Positions 18,052 to 19,019 of a stretch of DNA of 34,836 nt are shown piece by piece. Position numbers and translations under genes: made by a program. This stretch comes from a virus (Duplodnaviria; Heunggongvirae; Uroviricota; Caudoviricetes), in IMG/VR virus record IMGVR_UViG_2687453454_000001, positions 1-34,836 of that record. One strand, 5' to 3'. The first letter of the stretch is position 1. Every line of letters starts with the position of its first letter. The notes beneath the pieces were generated by a model that was not told where the DNA came from, made no database searches, and was given only the letters and a program-made list of their open reading frames with translations.

Positions 18052-18780
18052 ATGCTGACACCGGCACAACGACATTTTCAACGCGTCATGGCTGAACGCC
18101 ATGGCAAGGCAGATGATCTGTCAGAAACAGCGCGTACTGCGCACGAGCAAATTCTGCACCGCATGCGTATGGATATGAGTGCGCTGAAGAAAATTCAGGG
18201 CGAACAGGCAAAAGCCGCGCTTAAACGCCAGCTGCTACCCAATTACGAGGGGTGGATTGAAGGAACGCTGGAGGGAGACAGCGGGCGACAGGATGAAGTG
18301 ATCACGCGCCTGATGATTTGGGCGATTGATATTCGGGATTATCCGCTGGCCGTGCGCATCGGGCGGTATGTCATCGCGCACAACCTGGCAATGCCAGACC
18401 GGTTTAACCGCACGGCAGCGACAGCGCTGGTCGATGAGATTTGCGATCCCATTCTGGTGCAGGTCAAGGCGGATGACAGCACTGATATTAAGCCATATCT
18501 GGCGGTGCTCGATGAGGTCCAGGAGATCACTGAAAACAGCGATATGCCAGACGTCGTACGGGCCAAGCTGTATAAAGCCCGCGCTTTTGCATTGTGCAAC
18601 GGCACTGCGGATGAACAGGCGACTGCGCTGGAGTTGTTGCGTCGCGCGCTGAACCTCGACTCCGGCGCCGGGGTGAAAAAGCTCATCGATAAGCTTGCCA
18701 GGCAGGTAAAAAAAGCCTCTGCGGAAAATGCATCAGGCAGTGAGGGTGCAGACCAGAGCGGGGGGCGAAGGGGGCAATAA
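18052..18780 (+). CDS. M: terminase small (endonuclease) subunit (gpM-like), possibly truncated by a frameshift
   Basis: ATG at 18052 after GGGGAAG; P2 M-like AQRHFQRV N-terminus; the frame stops just after a G6 tract at 18760-18765 while the +1 frame continues to 18916. Confidence 0.8.
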   Translation: MLTPAQRHFQRVMAERHGKADDLSETARTAHEQILHRMRMDMSALKKIQGEQAKAALKRQLLPNYEGWIEGTLEGDSGRQDEVITRLMIWAIDIRDYPLAVRIGRYVIAHNLAMPDRFNRTAATALVDEICDPILVQVKADDSTDIKPYLAVLDEVQEITENSDMPDVVRAKLYKARAFALCNGTADEQATALELLRRALNLDSGAGVKKLIDKLARQVKKASAENASGSEGADQSGGRRGQ

Positions 18781-19019
18781 TCAGGCTGCAGCAACGCCGG
18801 AAGTGACGGTGCCAGCTGCCAAAAAGCCAGCCACCAAAAACAACCCCGGAAGCACAACACGTAAAACGGCGGCCCGCAAAACAACGACGAAAAAGCCCAC
18901 CGCCGATAAAAAATAACCGACTTGCGCCCCGTGCGCTGGCGGCGCGGGCGGAAATCTGCAACGCATCGCGTTAGTTTTTCTCCGTCCGCTCACCGCCAAC
19001 CTTTTCTGGAGACTACACG

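Follow-up and report, generated by a model that had tools for sequence, protein, structure and literature searches.

A P2-like (Peduoviridae) prophage inserted at a tRNA-Leu gene in one E. coli lineage carries a small terminase gene, M, in which a run of six G residues (G6) stands in place of the five (G5) found in its in-frame relatives. We consider it very probable that this difference is a single-G insertion inherited as one event, which leaves the prophage with a tail-less gpM protein of 242 amino acids and probably with impaired packaging, and that no designed recoding is involved. The stretch of DNA analysed, hereafter called the window, comprises 34,836 nt, and all coordinates refer to it unless another record is named.

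The window exhibits a head operon with the P2-like order O-N-M-L, comprising the scaffold gene O, the capsid gene N, the small terminase gene M and the head-completion gene L, and its portal and large terminase genes are located on the minus strand (13162-15938). The placement of gpM, between N and L and divergent from Q-P, fits a P2-type head operon. The large terminase gpP is intact in the window. The features relevant to the frameshift are as follows.

14217-15938, minus strand: gpP large terminase, the partner of gpM (573-aa ORF; Terminase_6N/6C domains on the identical protein; annotated WP_008500365.1)
16099-16932: scaffold gene O of the P2-like head operon
16956-18005: capsid gene N (PF05125)
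18052-18780, plus strand: gpM small terminase gene, truncated (ORF list and sequence; PF05944)
18760-18765, plus strand: homopolymer GGGGGG (G6); the ancestral state is G5, and the extra G is the frameshifting insertion
18766-18780, plus strand: four novel codons, CGA AGG GGG CAA, followed by TAA (sequence and comparison with in-frame alleles)
18767-18916, plus strand, +1 frame of gpM: orphaned linker and basic tail segment, ancestral residues 239-287 (EGGNNQAAATPEVTVPAAKKPATKNNPGSTTRKTAARKTTTKKPTADKK), with TAA at 18914-18916 (translation; identity to the C-terminus of P0123)
18917-19019, plus strand: conserved gpM-gpL spacer of 103 nt (the same 102-103 nt spacing occurs in homologues)
19020-19517, plus strand: gpL head completion gene, next in the late operon (PF05926, E = 1e-47)

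A single-G insertion in the small terminase gene

The gpM reading frame extends from an ATG at 18052 to a TAA at 18778-18780 and encodes a protein whose C-terminal end is ...ADQSGGRRGQ. This product matches the PF05944 profile with E = 5e-43 and 146.6 bits (curated cut-off 29.4), and the match spans residues 35-167, which correspond to profile positions 1-129 of 130. The original prediction noted that the frame stops at 18780 after GGGGGG at 18760-18765 and that the +1 frame continues for 45 codons with a Lys/Thr/Ala/Pro-rich composition. Both observations hold, the former according to the sequence and ORF list and the latter according to the translation, and the naming of the gene and of the G tract as the place where the frame changes is likewise correct. 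The stop lies 13 nt past the G6 tract, and a second run, GGGGG, is present at 18770-18774. The +1 frame is open from 18710 to the TAA at 18914-18916, and its 45 sense codons past the gpM stop (18779-18913) encode ...NNQAAATPEVTVPAAKKPATKNNPGSTTRKTAARKTTTKKPTADKK, a peptide rich in Lys, Thr, Ala and Pro.

The length of this +1 frame is by itself unremarkable. In a crude count, 40% of stop triplets were followed by an open +1 frame, a value that is inflated by real genes and is uninformative on significance; the significance of the frame comes from its homology. Read from 18764, the frame gives 50 residues that match the C-terminus of P0123, an in-frame protein of 287 residues, without a mismatch. 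The same residues can be aligned with the in-frame tails found in gpM homologues of Klebsiella and Serratia. The peptide therefore corresponds to the displaced basic tail of gpM, as had been proposed.

P0123 is named 'MULTISPECIES: phage terminase small subunit [Citrobacter]' (UniRef A0A4R0HYF4_CITFR) and is encoded on 76 contigs in 164 blocks of public data. If one G is removed from the window gene, the resulting 287-aa protein is identical to P0123 residue for residue. P0123 itself is G5 and full length. Ten loci encoding P0123 exhibit one to three substitutions relative to the back-corrected window gene, none of them downstream of the tract, and these must be synonymous because all ten loci encode an identical protein. 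At the nearest relatives, which include locus L013, the differences in DNA from the window gpM gene are one synonymous SNP and the extra G, and downstream of the tract the window has no nucleotide differences from L013 and similar loci.

The same state of the tract is seen in a broader comparison. Among 22 independent in-frame relatives (including L006, L012, L013-L022 and L024-L033), all 22 carry G5, and G6 is found only in copies of one prophage. In two E. coli prophages, with 98.6% and 96.2% identity to this region, M is 864 nt long and has G5, exactly one G fewer at the tract. A search with a pattern tolerant of G4-G8 runs returned only G5, in nine of nine IMG/VR matches and in the one metagenome match, and the tract context gave no hits among GTDB species-representative genomes. 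M measures 864-921 nt in three annotated relatives, namely Klebsiella phage 3LV2017, Serratia phage KSP20 and a Klebsiella sequence deposited as a plasmid (CP052639). In all three the basic tail is in frame and the stop precedes L by 102-103 nt, a position that corresponds to the window +1-frame stop at 18916, itself 103 nt ahead of the gpL start at 19020. The original prediction proposed asking where the C-termini of homologues end, and it would have been refuted by homologues that stop at 18780 and lack the tail. Close relatives do not end at the equivalent of 18780 and have the tail in frame.

Since all relatives have G5, and since removal of one G restores an identical protein, the direction of change is G5 to G6. 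We conclude from these comparisons that the tract has received a single-G insertion, which resides in the part of gpM coding for a disordered linker and which presumably arose by replication slippage on the homopolymer. Residues 1-238 of the truncated product are native, and residues 239-242 (RRGQ) are read out of frame before the TAA. The ancestral reading of 18766-18780 is (GG)C GAA GGG GGC AAT AA. The exchange is thus a loss of 49 residues (11 Lys plus Arg, 3 Asp plus Glu; net charge +8) and a gain of RRGQ.

The window also has longer G runs, namely G9 at 13061 (intergenic, upstream of the portal gene end), G8 at 20525 (lysozyme gene end and start of the next gene) and G7 at 22146 (S/V junction). 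In one relative, protein P0044, gpM runs into the M-L spacer (equivalent to about 18890-19019 of the window) in a different frame, reading ...LPPKNNRLAPRALAARSEICNALRF..., which points to another indel, separate from the first, close to the A run that immediately precedes the usual stop codon.

One prophage in one host lineage

The G6 allele is present in seven independently sequenced, complete E. coli genomes, whose sequences agree to 99.9-100% across 18040-19030: EC26 (urine, Hangzhou), 10R (turkey, Henan), Ec73552 (urine, Shenzhen), BN01 (calf brain, Xinjiang), 45E (farm environment), 23CRST028 (human faeces, Ecuador) and EC23 (human gut, Spain). Proteins identical to its 242-aa product (WP_044069421.1; P0121) are encoded on 283 contigs, in 336 blocks drawn from the NCBI, ENA and Logan collections. 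G runs are classic sites of sequencing error, and the 10R and BN01 assemblies carry extra single-base indels elsewhere in the prophage that are flagged 'frameshifted', two points in favour of a sequencing or assembly error, with G5 as the true sequence and the gene intact. We find this explanation extremely unlikely, however, because the same G6 recurs in seven complete genomes from different laboratories and countries and throughout the contigs just mentioned, whereas relatives assembled from the same kinds of data consistently exhibit G5. The extra flags in these two carriers affect gpP in 10R (L010 16179-17899) and D and ogr in BN01 (L011 35349-36799), and they stem from single-base gaps relative to EC26, which may be artefacts of long-read assembly or signs that the prophage is decaying further.

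The window matches EC26 (NZ_CP060880.1, 1945117-1979952) at every one of its 34,836 positions. Over 41 kb including flanks, 10R and BN01 have zero to three substitutions, if the inversion of a tail-fibre segment and a handful of single-base gaps are set aside. In all six carriers checked, the prophage is inserted between pgsA-tRNA(Gly-Cys-Leu) and yecA with the same integrase. The insertion is located at the 3' end of tRNA-Leu, downstream of pgsA, and is bounded by an imperfect 124-nt direct repeat with 94% identity; attL is at 399-520, and attR lies just outside the window, upstream of yecA (36903-37026 of locus L009). The left host flank has no SNPs over 6.4 kb in three carriers, and the other three match over the available 2.4 kb. 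This flank is informative, since only 547 of the 5,425 complete E. coli genomes reach 99% identity to it, with typical strains at about 98.6%. M217, a strain of the same lineage that is free of the prophage, has an identical flank.

We also compared equal 10-kb flanks for 24 contigs per allele. The G6 contigs share a single context, the only variant being this prophage interrupted by IS1, whereas the G5 allele encoding the same protein as the back-corrected gene resides in at least 10 mosaic prophages that differ in replication modules, methylases and tail fibres. Given at least 10 contexts for G5 and one for G6, the in-frame form is the circulating one. On the basis of these sequence comparisons, G6 is one event that has been inherited clonally with its host lineage. 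Its single-context distribution could nevertheless reflect recency instead of lost mobility, because the late genes in the window are open and the orphaned tail has acquired no further mutations.

A homopolymer in this position invites the idea of a contingency locus, in which packaging would be switched by phase variation, and the ATG at 18728, which opens an ORF in the +1 frame, likewise invites that of a split gene whose 62-aa tail acts in trans. The chance that either applies seems to us negligible. Tract length is not polymorphic besides the one clone, given G5 in 22 of 22 relatives and G6 in every carrier, and tracts of five to six G are usually too short for appreciable phase variation. 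An independent start of the tail at ATG 18728 was rejected as well, given that there is no convincing Shine-Dalgarno sequence and that no homologue has a separate tail gene.

As to possible decay of the prophage, the lesions seen in the window are that of gpM and a flagged Dam methylase gene. Individual carriers add an IS1 in a cargo gene and the indels in P, D and ogr, which may be assembly errors. The D12-class Dam methylase ORF (4749-5711) matches the full Pfam profile (positions 1-250 of 253), and PGAP flags the same locus as 'missing C-terminus', with a small gene fragment after it; the flag probably reflects a deletion or fusion at the 3' end. The disrupted cargo gene is one of two ORFs, of 128 and 944 aa, at 9412-12653. 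The region between the replication module and the portal gene, where they reside, is a typical P2 hotspot for cargo and defence genes. Neither ORF has a match in Pfam or PADLOC, and PGAP names the 944-aa ORF, which is split by IS1 in one carrier (L038), 'ligand-binding sensor domain-containing'. The prophage has an 813-aa A gene, and its minus strand also encodes an antitoxin-like HTH protein (8451-8828) and a toxin of the RelE/ParE family (9012-9290). Beside the integrase, also on the minus strand (1586-3098), a BRCT-domain protein (PF00533, E = 1e-7; weak PADLOC match to PDC-S48) and a 209-aa membrane protein are encoded, and these may represent a two-gene defence or exclusion cargo. Finally, the segment 25401-27111, comprising tail-fibre and tail-fibre-assembly genes, is inverted in EC26 (and hence the window) relative to 10R and BN01, with two SNPs, and is adjoined by an invertase gene coding for a Resolvase/HTH_7 recombinase (27224-27793). 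This arrangement looks like an active host-range switch of the Cin/Gin type in a resident prophage.

The displaced tail and the predicted gpM domain

Among 120 close cluster representatives (at least 64% identity), 118 carry the basic tail, with a median of 11 Lys plus Arg in the last 40 residues, and the remaining two are accounted for by another frame error and by an adapter artefact. In an alignment of 37 sequences, K281 is invariant, and K271, R275, T277, T278, A284 and K286 are nearly so. This conservation pattern clearly points to purifying selection on the tail within the enterobacterial clade. The window gpM lacks the in-frame basic tail that is typical of the enterobacterial P2-like subclade (at least about 40% identity).

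The more distant family presents a different picture, and here the proposed comparison of C-termini gave a mixed answer. An exhaustive HMMER search provided 133 PF05944 representatives at 50% identity with a complete core. Most naturally end near the equivalent of residue 225 without a basic tail: 56 end within five residues of that position, 31 more have short non-basic ends, and a tail net charge of +3 or more is found in only about 13 of the 133. A basic tail is thus not a defining feature of PF05944, and because most distant members are without one, a tail-less gpM can be a working terminase subunit in other phages.

The original prediction also likened the peptide to a basic C-terminal tail in P2 gpM, and P2 gpM (NP_046761.1, 247 aa) indeed ends in ...KPKPEPQPKAATRAPRKTRSVTPAKRGRPKKKAS. 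It belongs to the same family, PF05944, its gene lies in the same O-N-M-L order, and its tail end is rich in Lys, Arg, Pro and Thr. In contrast to the window, where the tail has been put out of frame by a 1-nt insertion, the P2 tail is in frame. The P2 tail has the AT-hook-like sequence KRGRPKKK, whereas the displaced tail of the window has TTRKTAARKTTTKK. Basic Lys/Thr/Pro tails and RGRP AT-hooks are typical minor-groove DNA binders.

To place the frameshift relative to the fold, we used an AlphaFold2 model built on the 37-sequence alignment for a full-length protein 99% identical to that of the window. The model exhibits ten helices ending at residue 228, with pLDDT mostly above 90, and disorder across residues 231-287, with pLDDT below 50. 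Because the helices end at 228 and the frameshift follows residue 238, the folded domain would be spared, and the truncated gpM is predicted to keep the whole helical domain (residues 1-228). The predicted core is an all-helical, TPR-like repeat that is unlike any solved small terminase (model m88dfb3e61554). Solved small terminases consist of an HTH domain and an oligomerisation core. A PDB sequence search with the full-length protein returned nothing below E = 0.2, and Foldseek matched the model only to generic helical repeats of the TPR type in the PDB (best E = 0.03), none of them a small terminase. From the model, P2-type small terminases (TerS) may represent a structurally uncharacterised class.

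Packaging, recoding and what the allele means

The frame now reads four wrong codons (RRGQ) and stops at 18778-18780, which gives a 242-aa gpM without its last 49 residues, including the conserved Lys/Arg/Thr-rich tail. This truncation would weaken or abolish cos-DNA packaging, and the prophage would then be passed on vertically, largely grounded, with its cargo genes and invertase still active. [quoted passage not shown] Lambda gpNu1 and P22 gp3 resemble gpM in having a flexible C-terminal extension past a folded core (PMC9611059), but they have no sequence or fold relationship to gpM, whose tail may, by analogy, act in a similar way. Because the C-terminal moiety of other TerS proteins contacts TerL or DNA, and because the tail is selected in its own clade, we judge with moderate, not strong, confidence that packaging is probably impaired and that the prophage is vertically inherited and crippled.

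The functional cost of losing the tail is uncertain because most distant family members are without one. It is conceivable that the truncation is neutral, such that the tail is dispensable, the 242-aa gpM competent, the prophage viable and the allele a harmless polymorphism. About two thirds of the distant PF05944 representatives manage without a basic tail, the whole predicted folded domain is kept, and the other morphogenetic genes are all intact in the window. However, the tail is kept, with specific positions conserved, in 118 of 120 sequences at 64% identity or above, G6 is confined to one prophage type and host lineage while the otherwise identical G5 protein occupies at least 10 mosaic contexts, and removal of the P22 TerS tail abolishes function, if this analogy applies (PMC9611059). 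Weighing these points, we regard neutrality as rather unlikely. If the truncated protein alone suffices, then the clade-conserved basic tail is dispensable.

An early stop in gpM also enlarges the untranslated gap before gpL to 239 nt (18781-19019). The late genes in the window are otherwise all open, with gpM as the only one among them that has been hit. The newly untranslated segment 18781-18916 is C-rich (44 C and 30 G among 136 nt), and Rho-dependent polarity on gpL and the downstream late genes might conceivably result, which is pure inference. A weak terminator-like hairpin is located inside the gpM-gpL spacer (18960-18972), but a promoter and terminator scan of 18600-19100 gave one such site versus 1.1 expected by chance, which is not significant, and an Rfam scan of 18000-19600 with E up to 1 gave no match.

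Could ribosomes instead bypass the insertion? If a useful fraction shifted +1 on the G run, full-length gpM would be made and the phage would be leaky or viable. Specifically, the P-site tRNA-Gly on GGG at 18763-18765 would re-pair on GGC while a slow CGA occupies the A site. Slipping by +1 at any point within 18710-18780 puts ribosomes back into the frame of the tail, and a shift on the G run would give the exact ancestral ...SGGE... sequence with the junction peptide ...SGGEGGNNQAAATPEVTVPAAK. Furthermore, two rare codons, CGA and AGG, are now in frame immediately downstream of GGG-GGG as a result of the insertion. There is a precedent in E. coli rpoB, where a +1-nt insertion is suppressed at 5% by +1 slippage on CCC-AGG-C (PMC7022156). 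In both cases a 1-nt insertion puts rare Arg codons in frame beside a homopolymeric, re-pairable codon, but in the window GGG precedes CGA, not AGG, which comes one codon later. As a result, AGG, the rarest codon, is not adjacent to the slippery codon, and with AGG in the A site the P-site CGA cannot re-pair. Re-pairing at GGG-CGA is possible at two of three positions, and CGA is only moderately rare: codon use in the phage late genes is 5.7 per 1000 for CGA and 3.9 per 1000 for AGG. CGA is also read by an abundant tRNA.

The prfB (RF2) gene provides a second point of comparison. In prfB, the shift codon has a Shine-Dalgarno-like element 3 nt upstream and is directly followed by the stop. The window resembles it in having an AGGGGG element near a stop codon (18769-18780), but the spacing and the P-site codon are wrong, given that CAA cannot re-pair +1, and the arrangement is kept in no homologue. 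Neither stimulatory arrangement of prfB is present, in that AGGGGG lies downstream of the G run and abuts CAA-TAA. A prfB-like shift at CAA-TAA (18775-18780) was accordingly rejected because tRNA-Gln cannot re-pair on AAU.

Given that the arrangement is conserved in no relative, we think it improbable that suppression produces useful amounts of gpM; occasional +1 slipping of tRNA-Gly on GGG-(CGA), spontaneous and at a low level, could at most regenerate some full-length protein. If suppression does operate, the result would be a viable phage of low titre and a site that is a possible evolutionary starting point for recoding. A programmed frameshift site finds no support because the two-frame arrangement is not conserved, with 22 of 22 relatives being G5 and in frame, as are the Klebsiella and Serratia genes; programmed slippage is unsupported because the ancestral, circulating form is simply in frame. 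Transcriptional slippage on G6 was likewise rejected, the run being too short for this to be efficient. Of the three causes originally offered, frameshift mutation is therefore the one that stands (G5 in 22 of 22 relatives), while sequencing error is contradicted by the seven genomes and 283 contigs, and programmed slippage is not supported, the arrangement not being conserved.

The frameshift is already present in databases, annotated as a normal protein. The truncated gpM is an ordinary CDS in NCBI pipeline annotation and has no pseudogene flag, and prophage-completeness tools would therefore score the element intact. The pipeline places the gpM start of G6 genomes at a TTG (17977) overlapping gene N, giving WP_234695166.1 (267 aa), and that of G5 genomes at the ATG equivalent to 18052. 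For annotation, then, the 242-aa WP_044069421.1, like WP_234695166.1 with its upstream TTG start, should be read as the frameshifted allele of a 287-aa gene.

The grounding of a prophage by a homopolymer indel is a commonplace event, and the G6 frameshift is biologically ordinary and leaves current understanding unchanged. It does provide a clean, single-event marker for one E. coli sub-lineage with a prophage at tRNA-Leu. Our literature and structure searches found no prior study of the role of the P2-type gpM tail and no solved structure of the family. As a natural deletion of the gpM tail, the G6 allele offers a cheap test of what the clade-specific basic tail does in P2-type small terminases.
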